Virus record (IMG/VR): IMGVR_UViG_3300021400_000686
Span: 1 to 64,000 of that record
Origin: a virus
Lineage: Duplodnaviria; Caudoviricetes
DNA length: 64,000 bases
Direction: 5' to 3' (one strand)
This document shows, piece after piece, positions 7,999-64,000 of this stretch; within the stretch, counting starts at the first letter, position 1; every line of letters begins with the position of its first letter. The notes under the pieces are model-generated. The model made no database searches and had not been told where the DNA came from. It saw only the letters and a list, made by a program, of their open reading frames with translations. A program made the translations under genes and the position numbers.

Positions 7999-8012
7999 CG
8001 GATTGTCCCCCT

Positions 8013-8999
8013 TTATTTTACATAATAACTTGAACAGAAGCCATAAACGCCTCCGTAAATCACATAATGCCAATAGGTTCCGTCTGACCCAACCTTGGTA
8101 TCGCAAACTTCAACCACCGCCCCCTTCGGCATTACGCAAATCGACTTGAAATTAGTCCCCGCGTTCTGTCTCAAGTTAAGGTTCCTTGTGACGATTGCAT
8201 CCCTCTGTTTGGTCTTTCTTAAGCAGTACCTCTTCTCGATGTACCCATAGTGCTTAGACGCAATACAAATGTGCCAGAAGCCGTTTTCCTCGCCAATAAC
8301 CTCAAAGAGGTTTCCAGTCGCAAGGTGAGGATAAGACGAAAGCGCTCCTACCATTGGCTCTGCATACACATCAATCAGCGTCGCTCCGTATGTCTCGCCA
8401 ACCCACGCATCTGTGATCGGCCCCGGAATGTCTCCGCCGTGGATTTCGTTCCACAAAGCTGTAATCGGCTCATACGGTGAATAAACGCCTGTATAGTCAA
8501 CCGCGTTGCTCTGTCCGCTCTTTTCCCACGCACGACTCGCAATCGGCTCAAACAGGATGCCCGCACGGCCTTCGGCAATTGCGCGGTCTGTGGACTCCCA
8601 CCCAATGTGCATACACTTGCCACCACCAACATCAAGACCGATGTGCCGTCCTCGGCCTCCCCAAGTGGTAAACAAAAGCGAGGCCGTCGGCCCCGCCTGT
8701 AAGCTATTGTATTTGTAGCAGTTGTTAATCTGCCCGATTGAGTATTGCTTGTCCCCTGTACAAGTCCACCCAGTGAACGCTGAACAGTCATCGGCTCGTT
8801 TCCCAAGCGAATTCCGTACAATCTGTACCAGTTCCTCTGGACTATATCTTGCGAAGTAGCTTGGTTCCCTCTCGAAGTATCCGCGTATTTGCGCTTCGCT
8901 CGTTAAGAGGACATCCTTCGCGCCCCACAAATAGACATACTTGCCTGATCTAAATGCGTTGATTGCATTATCAACCGCATTTTTCCACGGTATTGCCAT
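8013..8999 (-). CDS. Endolysin (NlpC/P60-like catalytic domain + SH3-like binding domains)
   Basis: YLWGA, DDCSAF (Cys), HIGL (His); C-terminal LNLRQNAG..WHYVIYGGVYGF SH3b-like. Confidence 0.7.
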   Translation of the reverse strand: MAIPWKNAVDNAINAFRSGKYVYLWGAKDVLLTSEAQIRGYFEREPSYFARYSPEELVQIVRNSLGKRADDCSAFTGWTCTGDKQYSIGQINNCYKYNSLQAGPTASLLFTTWGGRGRHIGLDVGGGKCMHIGWESTDRAIAEGRAGILFEPIASRAWEKSGQSNAVDYTGVYSPYEPITALWNEIHGGDIPGPITDAWVGETYGATLIDVYAEPMVGALSSYPHLATGNLFEVIGEENGFWHICIASKHYGYIEKRYCLRKTKQRDAIVTRNLNLRQNAGTNFKSICVMPKGAVVEVCDTKVGSDGTYWHYVIYGGVYGFCSSYYVK

Positions 9000-9038
9000 T
9001 AAGCACCTCTCTTTCTTTTCTATTCAGGTATTACAAAG

Positions 9039-9275
9039 TTATCCCTCCTTGAACGGATCGTGAACTTTGTCCCACCATCTGCCGATCAACTCAGGGAGCA
9101 ACGCAAGGACTTTCCTGTATTTGAATTCCTCAACTGCGTCCCAGTCGCCGAAGTCTCCAAGGACGAACTCGATGCTTTCCGTTGCAATCGTAATCGCTTC
9201 GTCCTTAGTGATCTTAATCGGTGTAAGGATCATTCCCTGTTTCTCGGCTTCTGTTCTGAGCTCTTCGCTTGTCAT
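9039..9275 (-). CDS. hypothetical protein
   Basis: ORF with RBS GGAGA. Confidence 0.5.
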   Translation of the reverse strand: MTSEELRTEAEKQGMILTPIKITKDEAITIATESIEFVLGDFGDWDAVEEFKYRKVLALLPELIGRWWDKVHDPFKEG

Positions 9276-9452
9276 ATCGCATCTCCTTTACCGATCTTTC
9301 GGCGGTGTCATTTTTTCGAGGAGTCGTCTGTGCCTTTCCTCATACTCTTCTTCCGACATTGACTTTTTCAGAGCGTCCTTGTCAAGAAGAAATTTTCTGA
9401 AAAAATCCATCAGTTCATTTTCTGTGTACTGTGCCATAGTTGCTCCTTTATG

Positions 9453-9845
9453 TTATGCAAGCCATAATAGTCGGATGCCTCCCCATACTGTACCAGATGC
9501 CGTCAATGTGAGCGTGCCAGATGTCGTAGACCCACTATAAGTTCCTGTGAATGTGATTGCGCTCGACCCACCTGCAATTTTCATAAAATACGGAACATTC
9601 GGGTCTGTGCCGATGGATGCGGAGCGAAGCCAAAGCAAATAACAAAACCATGTCTCTCCCCCCGGTGCTCCAAACAACAAGCCAAAACTATAATTATTAT
9701 TTGAATCTCTCGGAGTATTTACCGTATAGGTTGTCGCACTTGTGGCATATCGCTGTAAGACAGTACGAAGATTAGCCCCTAAAAGAAAAGATATGCCTTC
9801 TGCATCCAAGTAGGTATCGCTACCCAGTTTAATCGATTTTGCCAT
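9453..9845 (-). CDS. Tail-tip/RBP head module 3 with MAKSIKLG leader
   Basis: MAKSIKLGSDTYLDA N-terminus, beta-rich body. Confidence 0.65.
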   Translation of the reverse strand: MAKSIKLGSDTYLDAEGISFLLGANLRTVLQRYATSATTYTVNTPRDSNNNYSFGLLFGAPGGETWFCYLLWLRSASIGTDPNVPYFMKIAGGSSAITFTGTYSGSTTSGTLTLTASGTVWGGIRLLWLA

Positions 9846-9871
9846 GCGCGTTTGCGCTCTGGAAAGTTAGG

Positions 9872-10210
9872 TTATGATCCTGTATCTGTGCCTGTGAGCT
9901 TAAACCAGTGTGACCATCGTATTGGCGATCCTGATCTTGTCCTGTACCAGATGCCATTAAGGTTGACTATGACTTGGTTAACTGCGTCAGTGTCAACCCC
10001 GTTACTGGTTGTAACAACACATAAGTGCGAATATGACGCGCCCGCTGGGCAATTAGTAATTGCTGTGTTACTTGTCGCAATGTACCACCACCCACTTTGC
10101 TGTTGCGTCCGATAGTCATCTAAGTTTCCGCTCCTTATCGTTCCACGAATTCCAACGATTCCGCTCGCGTCCAGATAGGTATCACTCCCCAACTTAATGC
10201 TTTTCGCCAT
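9872..10210 (-). CDS. Tail-tip/RBP head module 2 (pyocin-knob-like) with MAKSIKLG leader
   Basis: NLDD..SGWWY..NCPAG..Q..WYRT..WSHW pattern. Confidence 0.7.
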   Translation of the reverse strand: MAKSIKLGSDTYLDASGIVGIRGTIRSGNLDDYRTQQQSGWWYIATSNTAITNCPAGASYSHLCVVTTSNGVDTDAVNQVIVNLNGIWYRTRSGSPIRWSHWFKLTGTDTGS

Positions 10211-10263
10211 TTAATTTTCGGGATTTGGCTGTGTCGATTATATCTTATTATGATTGACTTCCA

Positions 10264-10617
10264 TTATTTCCACTTGCCGATTGCAATCCATGAACAAAAT
10301 TGCTGATTTGTAGTTGGATCGTTTCGGTACACTGTAAATCCATTTACGCGTTCCCCTGCCACAAGAACATGATCGTTCCTTGTGTTGGTATATCTCGCTG
10401 ATACTACAACAATTGGGACCGAAATAAAATTTACAGAAAATGTGATTGTCTTTGATGAACTGCCTGCGTCCATCGTAGCCGCACCCCACTGTATCAAAGT
10501 CCCGTCTGGTAGTTTTGTGTAGTCTGTGTGCGATTCGTCTATCGCAGTATGATCGCTCATCACTATCCCACTCGCATCTAAGAATGTATCAGCCCCTAAT
10601 TTAATCGACTTAGCCAT
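10264..10617 (-). CDS. Tail-tip/RBP head module 1 (gp53-like C-terminal domain) with MAKSIKLG leader
   Basis: YTKLPDGTLIQWG..ITFSVNFISVP motif. Confidence 0.7.
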   Translation of the reverse strand: MAKSIKLGADTFLDASGIVMSDHTAIDESHTDYTKLPDGTLIQWGAATMDAGSSSKTITFSVNFISVPIVVVSARYTNTRNDHVLVAGERVNGFTVYRNDPTTNQQFCSWIAIGKWK

Positions 10618-10719
10618 GGTGAGTCACCTCACCTTCCCTCAGACCCCCTTTCCAGAGAGTCGCAGGAGAAAAGCTTACAGAGCTTCCCTCCTTTCGTCTG
10701 TTGTAACGAGAGGTTTGTA

Positions 10720-10729
10720 CCCCCCCCCC
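10720..10729 (-). repeat. G10 homopolymer inside a short leader ORF (10610-10747)
   Basis: ATGAATATCAAACTCATA-G10-TACAAACC, with RBS AAGGAG upstream. Confidence 0.8.
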
Positions 10730-10761
10730 TATGAGTTTGATATTCATGTTGCTCCTTTCTG

Positions 10762-10875
10762 TCAGCTCCAAACGCTGACGACATTTATGATACTGTCGGA
10801 GTTATCGTAGCTGATCCTGCTTGCCTGTTCAGCCGCTCCGCCGAACTCTATGCCGTTTCTGATTAGTTTACCCAT
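10762..10875 (-). CDS. 37-aa tail-associated peptide
   Basis: Strong RBS AGGAGG; MGKLIRNGIEFGG..ASRISYDNS..VVSVWS resembles parts of the 11040 fibre. Confidence 0.5.
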   Translation of the reverse strand: MGKLIRNGIEFGGAAEQASRISYDNSDSIINVVSVWS

Positions 10876-11039
10876 AATGCCTCCTTCCTGTGCTCGAATT
10901 TGCCCCTTTTTTTCGGAGCTTTAGCCACTTGCCTGATAAACTTTATCGCCTGAAGGCGTAAGACCCGCTAATTAGAGGATTTCGCCTCGTTAGAACAGGC
11001 TTTCTTGATTAAGAATGCCGTAAAATCACCTCTTCAAAC

Positions 11040-12038
11040 TTAAATTCTAACCGCACGGAGTATCCAGCTAACAGAAACGGCAGAGCCACAGTTATGCTCG
11101 GCAACAAGATTAATTGCCTCAGACCCATTCATTATAACAATCGCACTACAAGAAACTCTTGTTGTTGCCCCCTGACAAGGCGGTACTTGTTCGTCCGCAA
11201 CTGTTACAGATAAATCACCTCCTGTAATTGCACACCTACGGTAGCCCGGATTATTGTTCGACGGGTATATAAGGCTCCCAGAAATCACGTATCTTCCGGC
11301 AGGAAGTACAACTGACTTCACACTTACTACGGAGGCGTTTGGAACAGACGTTGTGTCTCTATAACTGGACACATCAGTTCCACCAAGATCGATCCAGTTT
11401 GACCAAGAATCATTTGCAAACCTTCTGACGTAAGCACCGCCAGAACCAAACACAAGTTGACATGTCACAGATCCATATCCAACTATAAGTACTGCGCTCC
11501 ATCCCAAAGGGCAGTTATTTTGTGCACTACCATCCCAATAATACAGTCCTGAATAATGTGTACCTTTGAAATTATTTAGATCATTTGTGTTGGCATCGAG
11601 TGACGCTTTGACCCCGTCAATCGCGCTCGCATTCAAGTAGGTATCGCCCGCCAACTTAATGCTTTTCTTCGCCCCCGAATCCCAGCTATTCACCTGAGAA
11701 TAAAGCAGGTTCGCAAGCATCTTTTCACCAGTCACAGATTCCGCAAACTGCGCTGACTTCAGGACTCTGTTTGCCGTCAAATCAAGCCCGTTTATCTCTC
11801 TCGTTTTCGGCACTGTATCGTCTACAACCTCATCAATCTCGTCGATCGCATCCTGCACATTCGTAGCAGTGAGTCCCGAAGCAGTGTGATCATAAGGAAC
11901 TTCACTTGCGGTAAGAGCATCTAACTGCCTCTGTAACTCAGAAGCTCTTTCCTGTAGAGTAGTTATCTCATTCTGTATTGCTTCGAAATCAACTTGTTTG
12001 CCGGGAATTGGAAAGCTTGTAAATTGATAATCTGGCAT
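11040..12038 (-). CDS. Tail fibre / receptor-binding protein
   Basis: Coiled coil, YDHTASGLTATNVQDAIDE fibre motif, internal AKKSIKLAGDTYL, knob-like domains. Confidence 0.7.
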   Translation of the reverse strand: MPDYQFTSFPIPGKQVDFEAIQNEITTLQERASELQRQLDALTASEVPYDHTASGLTATNVQDAIDEIDEVVDDTVPKTREINGLDLTANRVLKSAQFAESVTGEKMLANLLYSQVNSWDSGAKKSIKLAGDTYLNASAIDGVKASLDANTNDLNNFKGTHYSGLYYWDGSAQNNCPLGWSAVLIVGYGSVTCQLVFGSGGAYVRRFANDSWSNWIDLGGTDVSSYRDTTSVPNASVVSVKSVVLPAGRYVISGSLIYPSNNNPGYRRCAITGGDLSVTVADEQVPPCQGATTRVSCSAIVIMNGSEAINLVAEHNCGSAVSVSWILRAVRI

Positions 12039-12048
12039 TTACACCTCC

Positions 12049-12324
12049 TTACCACGAACTCACTTGCGAGTAAGTCAATGAAGCTAACATATTCTCGCCA
12101 GTGATTTCGCTTGCAAAATCGGCACTCTTCAGTACGATATTTCCACTTAGTGCTTTGCCGTTAATTGTTCGCCCTGTCAATACTGTTATCCGTTGGTTGA
12201 TACTGTCAATTGCTTGATTGATATTGATGATATCGTCGGTTACATTCTGTATATCTTGCTGTAACTGGTCTATGTCGATTTCATCCGCGTCAATCGGGAA
12301 CGCTGTGTACTGGTAATCCGCCAT
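12049..12324 (-). CDS. Short paralog of the fibre N-terminal anchor
   Basis: MADYQYTAFP..LKSADFASEITGENMLASLTYSQVSSW aligns with the N-terminal part of 11040-12038. Confidence 0.7.
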   Translation of the reverse strand: MADYQYTAFPIDADEIDIDQLQQDIQNVTDDIININQAIDSINQRITVLTGRTINGKALSGNIVLKSADFASEITGENMLASLTYSQVSSW

Positions 12325-12517
12325 CTTCAGCCTCCTTCTGGGACTCCTCCCATGTTTTCTTGTCTTGCTCCAACTGCGCTTTCTCTATCTGAGCCAACTG
12401 TTCGTAAGCTCTGGATAATTCGTTACGGACAACGAAGATAGGAAGCTCTGATTCATTGATTATCTTTACAAGATTTTCAATGAAGTCTTCTCTTGCTACT
12501 GTGATAGGCTTGTTCAT
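12290..12517 (-). CDS. hypothetical tail-region protein
   Basis: Coupled ORF with RBS. Confidence 0.55.
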   Translation of the reverse strand: MNKPITVAREDFIENLVKIINESELPIFVVRNELSRAYEQLAQIEKAQLEQDKKTWEESQKEAEDGGLPVHSVPD

Positions 12518-12530
12518 ACATGTTTCTCCT

Positions 12531-14936
12531 TTACCATGTGCTTACAACTGTTGGTGTGATGTCAACAAATACAGACCTTGACGGAATCCATACCCGCATT
12601 CCGCTTGGAGTTAGCATCGAAAAGTAATTAGTCCCAGATACCGTTGATCCAACAGTAATACCAGTATTAGTTATCGTGGCGGATGTCCCACCGCCACTAT
12701 AAGTTGAGGTGTAAGAAAATCCACCAGAAGGGCTTAGCGTCAACTTATACGCTGTCCCCGCTACTGTATAACTCAACGAGATGACATCATAAGCCGACGC
12801 AGAAGTGTCGATACTGATACTCCCGCCTGTTATATTAGCGTCCGAGCAATTAAGAGTTGTCGCGTTTACAACACCGTTGTACAAAATCTCAAAGATCGGA
12901 TCACTGGTGGTCGGATTGCGTGGGGGGCCATAGAATGTCTGGATGAACGGGCTTAACGGAGGGCCATTATTCTTGTGTATTACGCCGTAGAAGCCATATC
13001 CGACATGCTGTGCGTCAGGCCAGTATTCGCCAAAGCTGTATAACATACTCGGCGTAATGTTAAACCCACCGATTGAACCAGATACCGCAGTAAGCTCACC
13101 GTACTGTGATACAGAAAACCCAGTACCGAGCGTGATCGAGCCTTTATTTATCGCCACAGCGCCAGTCTCGCCATCAACGGTGAAGTTACCATCGCCAAGG
13201 TTAATAGATGAACCACTAAATGTTCCGCCATAAATCAAATCAGCATTGATGCTGTTTGCCTTGATGTATTCCCCGTTGATATAGACTTTTCCATCGTACA
13301 GATATATTCCCTGTTGTTCACCACCACCAGTTAATCGATTAAAAATATCCTCTTGCGTCAACTTTTCGTCCATTTCAGTTAACGCTTGACTTACTGCAAC
13401 CGAAGCATTGTATTCGGTGTTACTTACCTCTTCAATGTCTCGGAACTTCTCGCCTGTAGCTTCATAACTCGCAGAACACATTCCGTCGAACCGTAAAGTC
13501 CTCCGCATCAGAGGGATAACAACAGGCTCGTTTACATCGTACAAGACCTCGTAGGCTTGCCTTGTCTTACCAATAGCAGTATGGTCTTCTTTCGCCAGAA
13601 CCTCACCGCTCGTATTTGCATACAGTCGGAATTCTGGTTCGCCAGATTTTACTCCGTAAACCTCGCCGTATCTGTTGGCAAGAAGTACATAGTCGTCGCT
13701 CAGCGTAACTGCAATTAAATCACCAACATCAATCGCTGGGTTTGCGTATATCACCGATACGGACATTGGCGTGTAAGTCAACAGACTTTTGTACGCCGCC
13801 AAATCGCTTGCTGTAATCGTTGTGATAAACGGATTAGCGTATACTGGATATGGGTTTGTCTTATCGCCGAAGCTGATAGACGCTCCTTGTGTTGACTTGA
13901 ACAGGACACCGCTTATCGGCTCTGTGCTGTACTCTGCAATATCAGATTCGTCCAGTGCCATGTTGTCGGTATCAAGTGTTTCTTCTGCTTCAGCACTCAG
14001 CCACTTCAGTTCCAACTTTCCAAGTCGGTTGAAGTGCGCTATGCTCCTCGCCCTTGAAGCGATGTATGACAGAATGTCTCTGAGTTTTGTCGCGTTCGTG
14101 CTGAACGGCGACTCTTCATACTGCGTCGCGCTGTACAGGAAAGTTGAGCTTTCGTATTCCACACCCACATACTCGCACAATTTGGTATATATCTGAGAGA
14201 GCGTTGTTGGATATGTCAAAGAACCAAGGAAGTCAGCAGAATCCACATCGAACACTTTCATTAAATCCCGACCGTCTTCGATGTTTACAATGTCGTCTGT
14301 AGTCTTTCGTGGCTTCTCAACGTCGTACACACCCATCGGGCAGTATTCCCATGTTTGCTTTTCGCCGTCAACCCACACTGTTGCAATAGCGTTATTTGCG
14401 TCAAAAACAGCACTTTTAGACGTTGCAAGCTTCTGTACGAGTATTTTATTAGGCGATATAGCGGAATACGAAGAATCGCTGATTTTGATCTTTATAGACG
14501 ATGATGTACCAAAAGCGTATACATACTCCGTATCGGATAACAGAGAATGATATGCACCTGATACAAGTCTTTCACCGTCTATAAAAATGCCACCGTTGCC
14601 AGCGTCAAATACTTTTCCTCCAACTTCAACGTGTGCAAGGTACGAAGCTGAAATCTGATACGCTTCACTTGTAGTGATAACGCCGACATACGCTCTCATT
14701 ATTCCAAACTCATATCCACTCAGGATGCCGTTTGAAATCAGACTGAACGACACAGTATTAGAGGGACAATCCCCGAAGGTCAAGTTCTCGGAAGTCGAGA
14801 AATAATCCCCGAACGTCACCCCGCTGTCGTAAATGTCGTCATTGTCAAAATACACATCATTAAAAACAAGCAAGCATTTCTGCGGATAAGAGGGATTCTG
14901 TATCCGTTCAAGAAATGTCTCTGATCTGCTATACAT
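12531..14936 (-). CDS. Tail/baseplate hub protein
   Basis: 801 aa, positioned after the distal tail gene; beta-rich C-terminus. Confidence 0.7.
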   Translation of the reverse strand: MYSRSETFLERIQNPSYPQKCLLVFNDVYFDNDDIYDSGVTFGDYFSTSENLTFGDCPSNTVSFSLISNGILSGYEFGIMRAYVGVITTSEAYQISASYLAHVEVGGKVFDAGNGGIFIDGERLVSGAYHSLLSDTEYVYAFGTSSSIKIKISDSSYSAISPNKILVQKLATSKSAVFDANNAIATVWVDGEKQTWEYCPMGVYDVEKPRKTTDDIVNIEDGRDLMKVFDVDSADFLGSLTYPTTLSQIYTKLCEYVGVEYESSTFLYSATQYEESPFSTNATKLRDILSYIASRARSIAHFNRLGKLELKWLSAEAEETLDTDNMALDESDIAEYSTEPISGVLFKSTQGASISFGDKTNPYPVYANPFITTITASDLAAYKSLLTYTPMSVSVIYANPAIDVGDLIAVTLSDDYVLLANRYGEVYGVKSGEPEFRLYANTSGEVLAKEDHTAIGKTRQAYEVLYDVNEPVVIPLMRRTLRFDGMCSASYEATGEKFRDIEEVSNTEYNASVAVSQALTEMDEKLTQEDIFNRLTGGGEQQGIYLYDGKVYINGEYIKANSINADLIYGGTFSGSSINLGDGNFTVDGETGAVAINKGSITLGTGFSVSQYGELTAVSGSIGGFNITPSMLYSFGEYWPDAQHVGYGFYGVIHKNNGPPLSPFIQTFYGPPRNPTTSDPIFEILYNGVVNATTLNCSDANITGGSISIDTSASAYDVISLSYTVAGTAYKLTLSPSGGFSYTSTYSGGGTSATITNTGITVGSTVSGTNYFSMLTPSGMRVWIPSRSVFVDITPTVVSTW

Positions 14937-14945
14937 GCTCCCTCC

Positions 14946-15377
14946 TTAATACTCAATAAACGCTACTCGCGCCTCCGCATACTTGATTACTCTGTTTTCA
15001 AGATCAACATAGTTTTTCTGATACTGAACATCAGGCATGTAAAACCTTCCAGTATCGTAGCTGTCGGTTTCGTCGTTGTAATATCTCATGTAGAATTCTC
15101 TTTGCAGTTCATCGGTGTAATGCGCTCTCATGAAGCTCGTGAACTGTACCAGTTCCGCGTTTGTCATTTTCCGCAAATTGAATTCCACCTTAAACGGCAT
15201 GTGCCTGATAACATTTCTCTGTAGCACGCCGTTCACATTTCTTTTCGATGTAGATCGATCAAGTCTTTGGTTCGGCGTGGCTTTATAACTTTCCGCTACA
15301 ATAAGGCCGAGCGGAAAATCGTCGTAAACTGATCCGCTCGGCCTCCTCATTTGCATTAGTGTTCCGTCAAAACTCAT
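14946..15377 (-). CDS. Distal tail protein-like
   Basis: Position after the TMP; size; RNVNGVLQR motif. Confidence 0.6.
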   Translation of the reverse strand: MSFDGTLMQMRRPSGSVYDDFPLGLIVAESYKATPNQRLDRSTSKRNVNGVLQRNVIRHMPFKVEFNLRKMTNAELVQFTSFMRAHYTDELQREFYMRYYNDETDSYDTGRFYMPDVQYQKNYVDLENRVIKYAEARVAFIEY

Positions 15378-18300
15378 CCAGTCACCCTCCTGTACGCGTT
15401 AAGACTTTGGTTTATCATTCTTCCGTTAGAAGCGTTGGGTGTAAAAGAGAACTGCTTGTTCTGTACTACGGCAATAAGGGTTTCAAGTAAGTCTTGCTGA
15501 TTGTCACGTAATTGCCTTACCATTCCGATAACTTCATCAAGACTCACCGATGCATACGCCCCTTGGCCATACTCAGACCGCACGGCACCTGAGTCAATCT
15601 GCGTCGGAAGAACCGCCCCACTCGCGATATACGGGGCCTGTAATGACCCAATCGCGGTATCCGTAAGACTCGTGGCAATATCATTCATCGCCCTTAACGG
15701 AGCGCTTGCCTCATCTTCAATACCTAATGCAAGACCTTCAGACACCATCGCGCCGATTTCGTCTCGGAACACCCTTGACGGAGAACGAATGCCAAGTGCT
15801 CTCTTTGCCGCATTGATCGTTTTTGATGCAATATCTGTGACAACGCCGTTCAGCCAGTGCCACCCGTTTGTAAGACCCTGTGCCATACCGTTTATCATGT
15901 TGGAACCGATGCTTCCCCAGTCTTGTCCGTTCAGCGTATTGTAGATCATAGCGGAATAATTCCCCGAGTTGTTTACAAGACCTTGCAATGCGGTAAACGC
16001 GTTGGACGCCATTGCCCTAAACTTGTTCGCGACATCCCCACTCATGTTGCTCAACTTATTCGCCATAGTCGACGACATACTTGAGAACTTATTCGTGACA
16101 TCGTTGTTCATCGAGGCAAGCTGTTGCGTAGCAGTAGCGCTCATCGCCCTGAACTTATTCGCGCTTGTAGAGTCCATATTGGTGAGCTTGTTCGTTGCGG
16201 TAGAAGACATCCGTTCAAACTTTGAAGACAGATCACTGTTAATCATCTCCAAGCTTCTATTGGAACTTGCCTTCATGTTGTTGAACTTGCTACTTACAGT
16301 CGCGTCCATCGTACTGAGCTTGCCAGATGCGGCGACGGCCATCGTGCTGAACTTCGATGTCACATTATTGTTCATGTTGTTCACGGTGCTTGTGGTCTGT
16401 GTAGACATGTTCTGCATATTCAGGACGAGCTCACGAACCATAGAAGCCACTTGCTTCGCCACTTTAAGCGACATCGCCGCAAACTTGGAAGCCATCATAT
16501 CAGCCATCTGAGAGAACTGGTCTTTTACATCCCTTGTGTTCGTCTTAGCGGTCGTCGCGGTCTTTAAGTTCTCCTGCCTCTGGCGCTCCATCTGCATCGC
16601 CATTTCCTGAGTGACATTGATGGACGATGTACGGGCGGCGTTGTTTTCAGCAACGATGGTATTGGTTGTTTCGGTGAACGACGCTCCCGCGCCGTGGTGT
16701 GCGTTGACAATACGGTTAGTGGTGCTTTCGGTCGTTTCAGCAGTCTTTACGCTTTCCTGACGTTGGCGTTCCATTTGCATTGCCATCTCCTGAGTCACCC
16801 CAGAAGTGGATGCCTTAATTCGCTTATTATCAGACTCAATTTTACTTGTCGTAGTGTCGAACGATGCGCCAGCGCCATGGTTCGCGTTGACAACGCGACT
16901 TGATGAGTCCTCTACGGCCTTTGCGGTAGAGTCGCTTGCCCTAACAGTACGATGGGCGTTATCCTCAGACGTTTGTCCAGTCCTCTGTAACTCTTGGCGC
17001 TGAATTTCCATCTGCATTGCCATTTCCTGAGTTACGGACTGGTAAGACTGAGCCGTTTTCTTGTTGGAGTCATCAAGGCTCTTGGCGGTTTCCTGACGCT
17101 GGCGTTCCATTTCCATCGCCATTTCCTGAGTGACTTCGGAATAGGTCGCCGCCTGTTGATGCGCCGCTTCCCATGCCTCATCACCCTTGGCAACCATCAA
17201 GTCAACCTTGTCGTTGAAATTAGACTGCCATTCATCAAGGCTGTTCTGTGCCTTTTCTTTCCACGACCCGATAGTGTTGTCGTAGAATGTGTCAAGCCCC
17301 TGTGAGGCTTCCACCATTCCTTTGCCAATCTTCTTTGCAATCGGGCCACCGTGGTCGATAAGGTACTGCCCCATGCCGTTCATCGCCCGAACAAGCAATT
17401 CCTTCACGAGCCGTAACGGTGTCTCCAAGCCAGCGATAATAAGTTCGGCAACGCTCGTAACAATTGCCGCGGCAAGCTTTCCAAGAGCACCAAGAACTCG
17501 ATGCCACTTGATGTTCTCTACAAACTCGACAATCTTATCAGTTACGGTGTCCGAGAATTCGATAAAACTGAAGTCTTCAAAGAATTCTCCGATCTCGGAA
17601 GCCGCGCCCCAAAGGAAGTCGCTAAAGGCCTCCGCCGCATCGTCAGCGGGGAAAGTTTTGATGCCTTCAATAAGTGCGTCTATGATCTTTCCTACTGTTT
17701 TGACTATCGTACCGCCGAGGTTCTGGAAATCGGTTTCTTGCAAGAATCCACGCACGAACGAATTGAATGACCGCACCATCTTATTCAGGATTTCAGGGTC
17801 GGTATCGAAGATAGTCTGGATTCCATCAACAATCTTGTTGACAAGAGCGCCTAAGTCAGCGCCAAATCCTTCGAAGTTGATCCCGTCAAAGCACTTGCTG
17901 AAGAAAGTCACAATGCTGGATACAATAAGCTCTATCGGGAATTCCCGAATGCCCTTCCCAAGCGCCTCGATAATCTTGTTCACCACGGTGGAAAACGTGT
18001 CGCCAGCCTTTTCGAAATCAATCTCGGTGAAAATTCCTGTAATAAAATCCAAGAACGCCTGAACCATCTTGTTCAGGATGTCTGGATCAGTGTCAAATAT
18101 CGCCGCGATCCCATCGACAATCTTGTTCACAAGACTGCCGAATGTCGCACCGATATTATTGAAGTTCACCCCCGTGAGGAACCTCCCAACAAATATCGTA
18201 AGGCCGGCGACAATGTCTTCAATCGGAAAGTTTTCGATCTTCTCCTTGATGTTCGACATCAAGTTGTTGACGAACTCCGCCGCTTTGTCCCCAGCTCCGC

Positions 18301-19423
18301 CAAAATCAATACTGTTGATTAAATCCTTCAGCGATTGAATCTGCTGTAGCTCTTCAGGAATAGCCGTGTCCGCAAACGGATTCTGCTCTTGCTCTTCGGG
18401 GGTATCGATGATCGTTAATTCGTCAAACTTTGCCAAAGAACCGCTCGCCTTGTCGGCGGCAGCACCTGTTTTCGCAATAGCGTCCTTATAGTCATTCTGA
18501 TAACGAATTGCCCTCGTATAGGTTTTCTTGCCAAGCAATGCCGCAATATACATCCCGATTGTATTGAATGTATCTGCAAGCCTATTCATCATTGCCGTTA
18601 CTTGTGGGAGAAACGTATCAATCAACGGGGCAAGAGCCGCGCCAATTGCATTGTTCAAATCCTTGCCCGCCTTCTTATAGTCGGACAGGATCATGGACGT
18701 CTTTGTCCCCCATCCCTCTAACGAGGAAATTGCCGCTTGAAACGATGCGCCAACTTTTTTGAGAATCCCGACTAACCCAGCGATGCTCAGGAACTTCTTG
18801 ACAAACGCCCCAACTTGCTTGATTGGGCCCATCATTCTCGCCCCAAGATCATGGACTCTTTTGACTATGTTGCCTATAGTACCAACGACCTTTTTTCCAG
18901 CCGACACCACCACACCAAAGGCCTTCTTAAAGGCAGTGCCGAACCTACTTGTCGTCTCACTTGCCTCCCCAGTCCTGTTGGCAAACATTTCCATATCGGC
19001 TTGACCGTTTGCAATGCACCGAATGTTTGTATCCATCGTACCGGACATTTTCAGCAACGCATTCAGCAACAGCTCAATCTCGGCAGTTGTATTTGCAATT
19101 GACGCTATGTTCCGCTCAAGCGCTTCAGAAAATGTATTTGTCGAGGTGGCGACGGTATCGGTCTTTTCTTGCGCCTCTTCATACGCCTGATTCAAGCCGT
19201 CGGAAAAACCTTCAACGAAATCGGCGATAAACATCTCGACTCTATCAGCGAGATTGTTTAACAAATCACCGATATTCGCATTCGCGTTGGACATTGATTC
19301 TTCCATAGCGGTTCCGATATTCACCGTGGAATCAGACATTCCGCTAAGCTTTTTCTTGATCTCTTCTATCCCTTTATCAATGCCAGACGTATCTATTCGT
19401 GTGTTAATTACAATCTCGTCCAT
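15374..19423 (-). CDS. Tape measure protein
   Basis: 1349 aa, helical, 11/22-residue periodic repeats, RSPSRVFRDEIG motif. Confidence 0.9.
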   Translation of the reverse strand: MDEIVINTRIDTSGIDKGIEEIKKKLSGMSDSTVNIGTAMEESMSNANANIGDLLNNLADRVEMFIADFVEGFSDGLNQAYEEAQEKTDTVATSTNTFSEALERNIASIANTTAEIELLLNALLKMSGTMDTNIRCIANGQADMEMFANRTGEASETTSRFGTAFKKAFGVVVSAGKKVVGTIGNIVKRVHDLGARMMGPIKQVGAFVKKFLSIAGLVGILKKVGASFQAAISSLEGWGTKTSMILSDYKKAGKDLNNAIGAALAPLIDTFLPQVTAMMNRLADTFNTIGMYIAALLGKKTYTRAIRYQNDYKDAIAKTGAAADKASGSLAKFDELTIIDTPEEQEQNPFADTAIPEELQQIQSLKDLINSIDFGGAGDKAAEFVNNLMSNIKEKIENFPIEDIVAGLTIFVGRFLTGVNFNNIGATFGSLVNKIVDGIAAIFDTDPDILNKMVQAFLDFITGIFTEIDFEKAGDTFSTVVNKIIEALGKGIREFPIELIVSSIVTFFSKCFDGINFEGFGADLGALVNKIVDGIQTIFDTDPEILNKMVRSFNSFVRGFLQETDFQNLGGTIVKTVGKIIDALIEGIKTFPADDAAEAFSDFLWGAASEIGEFFEDFSFIEFSDTVTDKIVEFVENIKWHRVLGALGKLAAAIVTSVAELIIAGLETPLRLVKELLVRAMNGMGQYLIDHGGPIAKKIGKGMVEASQGLDTFYDNTIGSWKEKAQNSLDEWQSNFNDKVDLMVAKGDEAWEAAHQQAATYSEVTQEMAMEMERQRQETAKSLDDSNKKTAQSYQSVTQEMAMQMEIQRQELQRTGQTSEDNAHRTVRASDSTAKAVEDSSSRVVNANHGAGASFDTTTSKIESDNKRIKASTSGVTQEMAMQMERQRQESVKTAETTESTTNRIVNAHHGAGASFTETTNTIVAENNAARTSSINVTQEMAMQMERQRQENLKTATTAKTNTRDVKDQFSQMADMMASKFAAMSLKVAKQVASMVRELVLNMQNMSTQTTSTVNNMNNNVTSKFSTMAVAASGKLSTMDATVSSKFNNMKASSNRSLEMINSDLSSKFERMSSTATNKLTNMDSTSANKFRAMSATATQQLASMNNDVTNKFSSMSSTMANKLSNMSGDVANKFRAMASNAFTALQGLVNNSGNYSAMIYNTLNGQDWGSIGSNMINGMAQGLTNGWHWLNGVVTDIASKTINAAKRALGIRSPSRVFRDEIGAMVSEGLALGIEDEASAPLRAMNDIATSLTDTAIGSLQAPYIASGAVLPTQIDSGAVRSEYGQGAYASVSLDEVIGMVRQLRDNQQDLLETLIAVVQNKQFSFTPNASNGRMINQSLNAYRRVTG

Positions 19424-63281: not shown

Positions 63282-64000
63282 AGTAGCAATTTATGTCCGC
63301 GTATCAACGCAATATCAAGTAGACCGAGAGTCGCTTCCAGTGCAACGGAGGGAGCTTTCGGCGTATTCCGAGTATGTCCTTGGGATCAACGACTATGAAA
63401 TATTTGAAGACGCGGGGTACTCGGCGAAAAACACGGACAGGCCATCGTTCCAACAGATGATGTCGAGAGTCCGACAACATGAGTTTTCCCACATGCTTGT
63501 GTGGAAAATTGACAGGATCAGCCGAAATCTTCTCGACTTTGCAGAAATGTACGCTGAGCTTAAAAAGCTCGGCGTGACTTTCGTGTCTAAACACGAGCAG
63601 TTTGATACGTCTACCGCCATCGGCGAAGCCATGTTGAAAATCATCCTTGTGTTTGCTGAGCTTGAACGGAAGATGATCGGCGAACGAGTCGCGGCGGTAA
63701 TGCTGTCTCGCGCATCAGAGGGAAAGTACAACGGAGGAACCCCTCCCTTCGGATACACGAGGGACGGAACAACAATTGTCGTCAACGAGGAAGAACGCCC
63801 CACGGTGGAACGGATATACAAGCTATATCTCTCAGGGGAGTCAACCCACAGCATTTCCAAAATGCTAAACAACGAAGGCGTGAGCAAACGCGGAGCGACT
63901 TGGTGCGCCCAAACAGTACGCGCCATTTTAAGGAGTCCAACGTACATCGGTACAATGCGGTACAACGTGTCCGACCTTGAAAAGTCAAAAATTAAGCCAA
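63271..64000 (+). CDS. Large serine recombinase (integrase), 3' end outside the window
   Basis: My translation: MANKVAIYVRVST..EDAGYSAKNTDRP..VWKIDRISRN..PPFGY; no stop inside the window. Confidence 0.92.
   Translation, partial: MANKVAIYVRVSTQYQVDRESLPVQRRELSAYSEYVLGINDYEIFEDAGYSAKNTDRPSFQQMMSRVRQHEFSHMLVWKIDRISRNLLDFAEMYAELKKLGVTFVSKHEQFDTSTAIGEAMLKIILVFAELERKMIGERVAAVMLSRASEGKYNGGTPPFGYTRDGTTIVVNEEERPTVERIYKLYLSGESTHSISKMLNNEGVSKRGATWCAQTVRAILRSPTYIGTMRYNVSDLEKSKIKP

Follow-up and report, generated by a model that had tools for sequence, protein, structure and literature searches.

The stretch of DNA analysed here (hereafter the window) comprises positions 1 to 64,000 of the IMG/VR virus record IMGVR_UViG_3300021400_000686, which is 88,332 bp long in full. 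Its tail-tip region at positions 9453-14936 encodes stalk-like proteins that end at tryptophan (W) and a set of small proteins, here called heads, that begin with a common leader peptide. An earlier note on this DNA had described these as free anchors and free heads of a split system, in which heads either dock non-covalently or are exchanged as cassettes by homologous recombination. All genes of the region lie on the minus strand, and those at issue are as follows (aa, amino acids; ORF, open reading frame):

12531-14936, minus strand: Tal/hub gene, 801 aa, after Dit; matches PHROG tail protein phrog_6616 (E 2.9e-24)
12049-12324, minus strand: anchor-only gene, 91 aa, ending YSQVSSW (TGG TAA)
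11040-12038, minus strand: fused fibre, 332 aa, with the junction W119-DSG-AKKSIKLAGDTYLNAS
11682-12038, minus strand: anchor part of the fused fibre, residues 1-119, ending YSQVNSW
11625-11681, minus strand: junction of the fused fibre, made up of the DSG linker (11673-11681) and leader copy AKKSIKLAGDTYLNAS (11625-11672)
11040-11624, minus strand: head of the fused fibre, a proximal knob domain (head 2 homologue) and then a distal domain (residues ~229-332)
10762-10875, minus strand: 37-aa ORF, best read as a chimeric scar, ending VVSVWS
10610-10747, minus strand: leader mini-ORF, whose start MNIKLIGGG is a degenerate leader, with a tract of ten G residues (G10) at 10720-10729
10264-10617, minus strand: head 1, 117 aa, slot 1; leader and Gp53-like_C tip domain
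9872-10210, minus strand: head 2, 112 aa, slot 2; leader and fibre knob domain
9453-9845, minus strand: head 3, 130 aa, slot 3; leader and a domain without known fold

The leader MAKSIKLG[SA]DT[YF]LDA opens all three head ORFs, and a fourth copy sits inside the 332-aa fibre, directly past W119-DSG. A degenerate version of this pattern occurs exactly four times in the 88,332-bp record and never in a reversed control. At the nucleotide (nt) level, a repeat search returned one four-copy family of 44-nt direct repeats (9797-9840, 10162-10205, 10569-10612 and 11624-11667), and a run of 17 nt is identical between the head 2 leader (10189-10205) and the fibre junction (11651-11667). The three heads agree at 13-15 of their 15 N-terminal residues and are otherwise unrelated; the leader is likewise shared in the related loci L013, L014, L015 and L023. 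The earlier note was thus right in where it placed the leader starts, the W-ends and the fibre junction, in the direct orientation of all leader copies and in the 17-nt identity. Its statement that the head domains are unrelated holds for heads 1, 2 and 3 stripped of their leaders, which showed no mutual similarity, but head 2 is related to the proximal head domain of the fibre.

The stalks are recognisable by their C-terminal ends. The last nine residues of Tal read I-T-P-T-V-V-S-T-W (12534-12560), and a motif that exceeds the V-x-x-W first described, [IL]-x-P-x-V-V-[SNA]-[TE]-W, is found in the Tal proteins of the window, L012, L013/L014, L023 and P0040. A stop at W or WS is seen in anchors of four kinds. 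The 91-aa anchor of the window shares its N-terminal attachment motif with the fibre and also contains a stretch of coiled coil as well as the anchor half of the connector described below; it is 49% identical to fibre residues 1-119 and 58% identical to the fused protein P0014. Relatives of this anchor with lengths of 50-160 aa were not found in a collection of 5.8 billion proteins.

A comparison with related phages, which had been proposed as a check, was made through leader-pattern and fibre searches, and these recovered a small group of relatives, all metagenomic. In this group the junction is conserved and is either part of one polypeptide or divided between two genes that are cut at the same residue. 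The conserved connector spans ~60 aa: a stalk half of ~40 residues that ends in [LI]-x-[YF]-x-x-V-x-x-W, and ~17 residues after the W, of which the leader (15-17 residues) forms the head half. The fused proteins P0010-P0014 read ...YSQV[NS][ST]W-DSG-A[KS]KSIK...; between them they have N-termini of three kinds and five heads that are unrelated. Splits between W and MAK occur in L012, L013, L014, L023 and P0018, the anchors of which are of another kind (206-215 aa). In the four loci the anchor stops at ...VSTW or ...VVSVWS, with one to three leader-starting genes behind it; P0018 is an anchor-only protein that ends in VVSTWS. Fused and split forms are equivalent, and the same head can occur in both, as with head 3 of L023 and the head of fused P0014 (57% identity). 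Across six loci (the window, L012, L013, L014, L015 and L023), 14 of 14 head genes start with ATG exactly at the leader.

The connector is not covered by any Pfam, NCBIfam or annotated PHROG family, and neither its DNA nor its protein sequence has a match in 50,697 GenBank phage records, in which the L013 anchor matches through a generic fibre repeat alone. The leader and connector patterns were also absent from 185,579 species genomes. Judged from sequence, the junction is a conserved module boundary, around which N-termini and heads are interchangeable. In P0016, a 311-aa protein from a metagenome, a single chain carries a stalk, a knob, a second W-like end, a second leader-like stretch and another head; its two junction-like motifs indicate that the connector can be iterated within one fibre. 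We also considered read-through, frameshifting or hopping from an anchor into a head, and rejected these routes because anchors and heads are in different frames, stops occur in frame shortly before the head ATGs, and the 91-aa anchor does not adjoin a head.

We then asked what the heads resemble. Residues 35-114 of head 1 match the Pfam domain PF21882 Gp53-like_C (E 9.6e-11, 42.5 bits against a cut-off of 24.9), and this head also matches C-termini of tail fibres in PHROG. For head 2, to which no sequence family could be assigned, the AlphaFold2 model has a predicted local distance difference test (pLDDT) score of 84. This model superimposes on the knob of the R2 pyocin fibre (6cl6_A, residues 447-537) with a VIA-align Z of 11.7 and a root-mean-square deviation of 2.9 A over 84 residues at 23% identity. 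Eleven chains scored at Z of at least 8, every one of them a phage fibre or receptor-binding protein (RBP), and the fold, shared across the whole domain, is that of the knob known from R-type pyocins, staphylococcal phage fibres and the phi812, P68 and phi11 RBPs. Over its full length head 2 is homologous to the proximal head domain of the fibre (31-36% identity; BLASTP E 4e-11) and it has free homologues in P0002-P0006 (46-55% identical); the distal domain of the fibre (residues ~229-332) is common with P0008. Head 3 belongs to no known family and shares 50% identity with the only free head of L012, which directly follows the W-ended anchor of that locus. With head 3 and the connector as queries, the ESM Atlas returned just unnamed viral clusters or fibre families below threshold. 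Sequence searches found no relatives of solved structure, and there were no NCBIfam matches. By homology and predicted fold, the three heads are receptor-binding modules of the fibre-tip type and not chaperones.

Of the 48 nt in the leaders of the free heads in the window, 16-17 differ; at the codon level there are 8-11 synonymous changes and 1-3 that are non-synonymous. Even the codon class of serine varies (AGC vs TCR), with AGC in one copy and TCG in others. Codon comparison thus agrees with the earlier description of mostly synonymous divergence. Because the leader codons differ mostly synonymously, purifying selection acts on the peptide, and a conserved peptide written in diverged codons fits a docking role. 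Within the genome, exact runs between leader copies are 6-9 nt long, apart from the 17-nt run of head 2 and the fibre.

The DNA in front of each head behaves as a slot. The 5' untranslated regions (5'UTRs) of the slots (9846-9875, 10211-10240 and 10618-10650) are 90-100% identical between phages that carry different heads (L013, L014, L015 and L023): the 30-nt slot 1 5'UTR is 100% identical between the window and L023, that of slot 2 is 90% identical to L023 slot 2, and that of slot 3 is 90-96% identical to L013_B, L015_B and L023_3. Positional counterparts in different phages share exact UTR-plus-leader runs of 27-57 nt. Other combinations can be read directly from public assembled contigs, which hide rare variants. 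In a goat-gut contig, a head 98% identical to head 2 lies behind an L013-type anchor end and poly-G block and is followed by another head. In a contig of run X2, one of two runs with the sequence of the window, the poly-G block is joined to head 2 and head 1 is absent; the other of these runs contains a co-occurring phage with a P0013-type fused fibre. X1 and X2 are two gut metagenome runs of one study; both contain related variants with other fibre and head sets at similar or higher depth, and their assemblies, aligned to window positions 9000-13000, break at the leader copies. The modules are shuffled, and these data support the view that heads are exchanged between phages at slot borders by homologous recombination. 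Cassette exchange, as suggested earlier, is therefore upheld between phages by the slot blocks and contigs, but not as a programmed event within the genome, of which the public contigs show no sign.

The 37-aa ORF carries the marks of such an event. It starts with 30 residues that match the N-terminus of P0013-type fibres (P0011-P0013) exactly, and its last seven codons, together with the DNA downstream, equal the 3' end of an L013-type anchor. The otherwise unrelated genomes of the window and L013 share a 73-nt patch at 97% identity (10710-10782 and L013 3776-3848), which takes in the last codons of the anchor, its stop, the ribosome-binding site and the poly-G tract. On this evidence the ORF is best read as a recombination scar. 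It had been counted as the third of three free W-ends matching three heads, a pairing that does not survive: relatives have two W-ends with one to three heads (W-ends to heads of 2:1, 2:2 and 2:3), so a 3:3 match reflects no rule, and the window itself has 2-3 W-ends to three heads.

Three elements recur between the anchor end and slot 1 in the window, L013, L014, L015 and L023: a strong ribosome-binding site, a mini-ORF that starts with a degenerate leader, and a tract of 7-10 G residues. The tract measures G10 in the window and in L013, G8 in L014, G9 in L015, G7 in L023 and G9 in a contig of X2. Of the three possible frames, just one per phage terminates at the ATG of the head. The mini-ORF is in this frame in the window, where with G10 its stop overlaps the head 1 ATG, and also in L014 (G8) and L023 (G7); in L013 (G10) and L015 (G9) it is in another frame. 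A hairpin contains the Shine-Dalgarno sequence of head 1. Tract length is thus polymorphic among close relatives, as seen in contigs only, with a consequence for the frame, and the poly-G leader ORF probably phase-varies head 1 via translational coupling.

Tal may offer a further site for heads. Identity among the Tal proteins of the window, L012, L013/L014 and L023 is only 20-38% overall, yet they end in the same nine-residue W motif, as does P0040, which is known from its protein alone. Among 1.84 billion representatives, the C-terminal 200 aa of Tal have four weak relatives, and only P0040 aligns to its end; scans of viral contigs with the Tal of the window and that of L013 gave nothing new. 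In L021, which encodes a pair of fused fibres and lacks free heads, the homologous Tal has a different ending. This correlation between W-ends and free heads suggests that the Tal tip could be a second docking site.

On balance, we lean towards a model in which W-ended stalks carry the heads as non-covalently docked receptor-binding tips, with the joint also serving as a breakpoint for the exchange of heads between phages. In split forms, the stalk gene stops at W or WS and the head gene starts at M-A-K-S-I-K-L-G; in fused forms, D-S-G joins the two halves. The three small proteins, which are encoded as separate polypeptides, would trimerise and then complete the connector non-covalently on trimeric W-ended stalks, namely the 91-aa anchor and the Tal tip. 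Competition of the heads for these sites would give a mixed display, with several specificities beside that of the covalent 332-aa fibre. The junction and the slot-specific intergenic blocks would act as homologous-recombination breakpoints for head exchange, and the poly-G leader ORF upstream of slot 1 would switch translation of head 1 on and off. A more far-reaching version, which we consider doubtful, is that any leader-bearing head fits any W-ended stalk, the Tal tip included, so that virions would be mosaics of up to four specificities whose mix is set by the poly-G tract, while recoding of the leaders would prevent self-deletion yet leave them exchangeable with other phages.

Several points weigh against docking on the W-ends or limit the case for it. 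When three copies each of the 91-aa anchor and head 2 were modelled as a complex with their own alignments, three runs gave 0.88, 0.01 and 0.01, a result that tells neither for nor against binding. In an AlphaFold2 monomer of connector plus knob, the knob is confident and the connector has a pLDDT of 50-76, a low-confidence model. The numbers of W-ends and heads do not match, and no pairing rule emerges. The connector family occurs in no cultured phage and in no prophage of the 185,579 species genomes, which limits comparative power. For the Tal correlation, about three independent lineages count as positives, against a single negative. An obvious Shine-Dalgarno sequence is absent from heads 2 and 3, unlike other genes of the module, which have strong ones, and this makes the level at which these two heads are expressed uncertain.

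The mismatch in number would also fit heads that are virion parts but dock elsewhere, the leader perhaps inserting into Dit, another baseplate protein or the fused fibre, with the terminal W as a trimer cap or folding element only. In known systems, the sites at which short N-terminal peptides dock are dedicated branching domains and not the ends of fibres (PMC6872550). We nevertheless regard this explanation as unlikely: the leader follows the W by three residues in fused homologues, which makes the two neighbours in the folded joint, anchors of four kinds are truncated at exactly W, and family-profile searches detected neither a T4gp10-like nor any other docking domain in the module. The missing Shine-Dalgarno sequences bear on another explanation, in which the free heads are spare or decaying cassettes kept by recombination and not virion subunits, and the anchor-only gene is a truncated fibre. 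The 37-aa scar, the 164-nt non-coding gap in the locus, the frequent reshuffling seen in contigs and the lack of an anchor-only relative of the same type for the 91-aa anchor all speak for such a store. However, the heads are intact ORFs with their ATG exactly at the leader at six loci, the leader peptide is under purifying selection, heads 2 and 3 have free homologues (46-55% and 50% identical, respectively) that have stayed intact over long divergence, and two- and three-head arrangements with conserved slots recur. We consider a mere store quite improbable.

Two further explanations have still less to recommend them. Programmed or frequent recombination between the direct leader repeats could delete the intervening DNA, fuse the fibre anchor to a downstream head and so create subpopulations, a scheme to which the direct 17-nt run at the fibre junction and head 2 leader and the natural occurrence of the same heads in fused and free form would lend themselves. 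But the remaining leader pairs share just 7-14 identical nt, such a deletion is irreversible, and no contig joins 11651-11667 to 10189-10205; the joints observed belong to other phage variants, with the caveat that contigs hide rare variants. Nor is there a recombinase gene within ~50 kb: as the earlier note had said of invertases, none is nearby, the nearest recombinase being a serine recombinase from 63283 onward, and the recombinase searches found no tyrosine recombinase. This scheme is very unlikely. Least probable, in our estimate, is that the small proteins are non-structural, as fibre-assembly chaperones or as soluble lectin-like or exclusion proteins. Chaperone genes are usually found where these small genes are, behind that of a fibre, but the bodies of these proteins are homologous to distal receptor-binding parts of fused fibres and to tip and knob folds, and the peptide they have in common with the internal junction of the fibre is not that of a chaperone family. 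Docking on W-ended stalks, with exchange at the joint, is in our view the best reading.

The surrounding genes are those of a late tail module, in which the following features complete the picture:

15374-19423, minus strand: tape measure
14946-15377, minus strand: Dit (DUF6711, by Pfam), followed by the Tal gene
12290-12517, minus strand: 75-aa gene that overlaps the Tal stop, phrog_19373 (unknown function), E 1.7e-10
8013-8999, minus strand: SH3-bearing endolysin, separated from the heads by two small genes

The 75-aa gene has a 74-aa counterpart in the same place in L013 (4924-5148) and L014, and may encode a Tal-associated assembly factor. L012, L013, L014 and L023 have holin-like genes between Tal and the anchor, which places anchor and heads within a lysis cassette (holin, anchor, heads, endolysin). 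The interval between the fibre stop and the 37-aa ORF (10876-11039, 164 nt) contains no ORF, and an Rfam match, a terminator consensus and a promoter consensus were all not found there; across 8000-16000, no Rfam family was detected. A frame of 553 aa with a Resolvase domain (E 9e-38) encodes a large serine recombinase; it occupies 63283-64000 on the plus strand, continues onward in the record and lies at a change of GC skew. The enzyme is likely the integrase, and for this reason the phage is probably temperate; the late tail module in the window would then belong to an uncultured, temperate 88-kb siphophage of the animal gut.

Little is understood about the host range of gut and rumen phages, whose fibres mostly lack annotation. 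What this locus reveals is a small, precise joint at which fibres are cut and tips exchanged. If docking is true, it would provide a multi-specific tail tip in a Gram-positive-type siphophage, with Tal itself as a carrier, and a compact tag pair of ~40 and 15 residues by which new binding domains could be attached to phage tails without gene fusion. It would also yield an annotation rule, whereby 'hypothetical' genes of 100-160 aa between fibre and lysin genes are receptor-binding tips.

Alternative C-terminal fibre parts are placed behind a constant N-terminal part by the Mu G segment, the P1 C segment, shufflons and diversity-generating retroelements. The window differs from the invertible cassettes in lacking inverted crossover repeats and a flanking invertase, and has instead four direct leader copies and a separate start codon for each head. 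It differs from diversity-generating retroelements in having no reverse transcriptase (no RVT_1 match in the 88-kb record). Receptor-binding genes of Campylobacter phages are described as containing hypermutable poly-G tracts in the work of Sorensen et al. (2021, Cell Rep 35:109214), as cited in PMC10877375. There, as here, a G tract lies in the host-recognition module and varies in length between close relatives. The tract of the window is not inside an RBP gene but in an upstream leader mini-ORF, whose frame decides on termination at the head start.

Closer in their working are systems in which separate RBPs are held by a common attachment part. In K1-5/K1E/SP6, G7C and the Klebsiella KP32/KP34 groups, RBPs share a conserved N-terminal docking peptide of 7-11 or more residues, which docks on a T4gp10-like branching domain of podophage and myophage tailspikes (PMC6872550, PMC13352976). 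Unrelated distal RBP parts, a short shared N-terminal peptide, horizontal gene exchange and a multi-specific virion, which is here proposed, are features in common. In the window, however, the apparent partner of the peptide is the C-terminal end of a stalk, fused homologues have a continuous chain, heads are 100-165 aa long and Tal bears the end motif; family-profile searches of Tal, the anchors and the fibre found no T4gp10-like domain in Pfam, PHROG or NCBIfam. In T2/T6-type phages, the small adhesin gp38 binds the C-terminal tip of the long tail fibre gp37 through an N-terminal attachment domain (PMC3157838), and it likewise combines a conserved attachment part with a variable, exchangeable specificity part. 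It differs in being a single adhesin per phage with glycine-rich motifs and in having no sequence or family relation to the heads, none of which matched the gp38 family in Pfam or PHROG; the window has 1-3 alternative heads on one leader, and fused versions of its joint exist. In the lactococcal P335 baseplates of TP901-1 and Tuc2009, BppU holds trimers of BppL (and BppA) (PMC4742702). These are also Gram-positive-type siphophages, in which separate RBP trimers are held by their N-terminal stem on a stalk or adaptor protein that follows Dit and Tal, and accessory heads can be added. Neither heads nor joint show sequence similarity, and Pfam hmmscan at E 0.01-0.1 found no BppU_N in the 91-aa anchor, the fibre, the L013 anchor (215-aa type), P0008 or P0018, which leaves the presumed resemblance unconfirmed.

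Taken together, the locus resembles the anchor-branch, gp38 and BppU/BppL systems in its apparent working and, as far as sequence and domain content can tell, is a member of none. What is new is the specific connector, found intact or cut at one residue, the end motif of Tal, the multi-slot array with recoded leaders, and the poly-G leader ORF.

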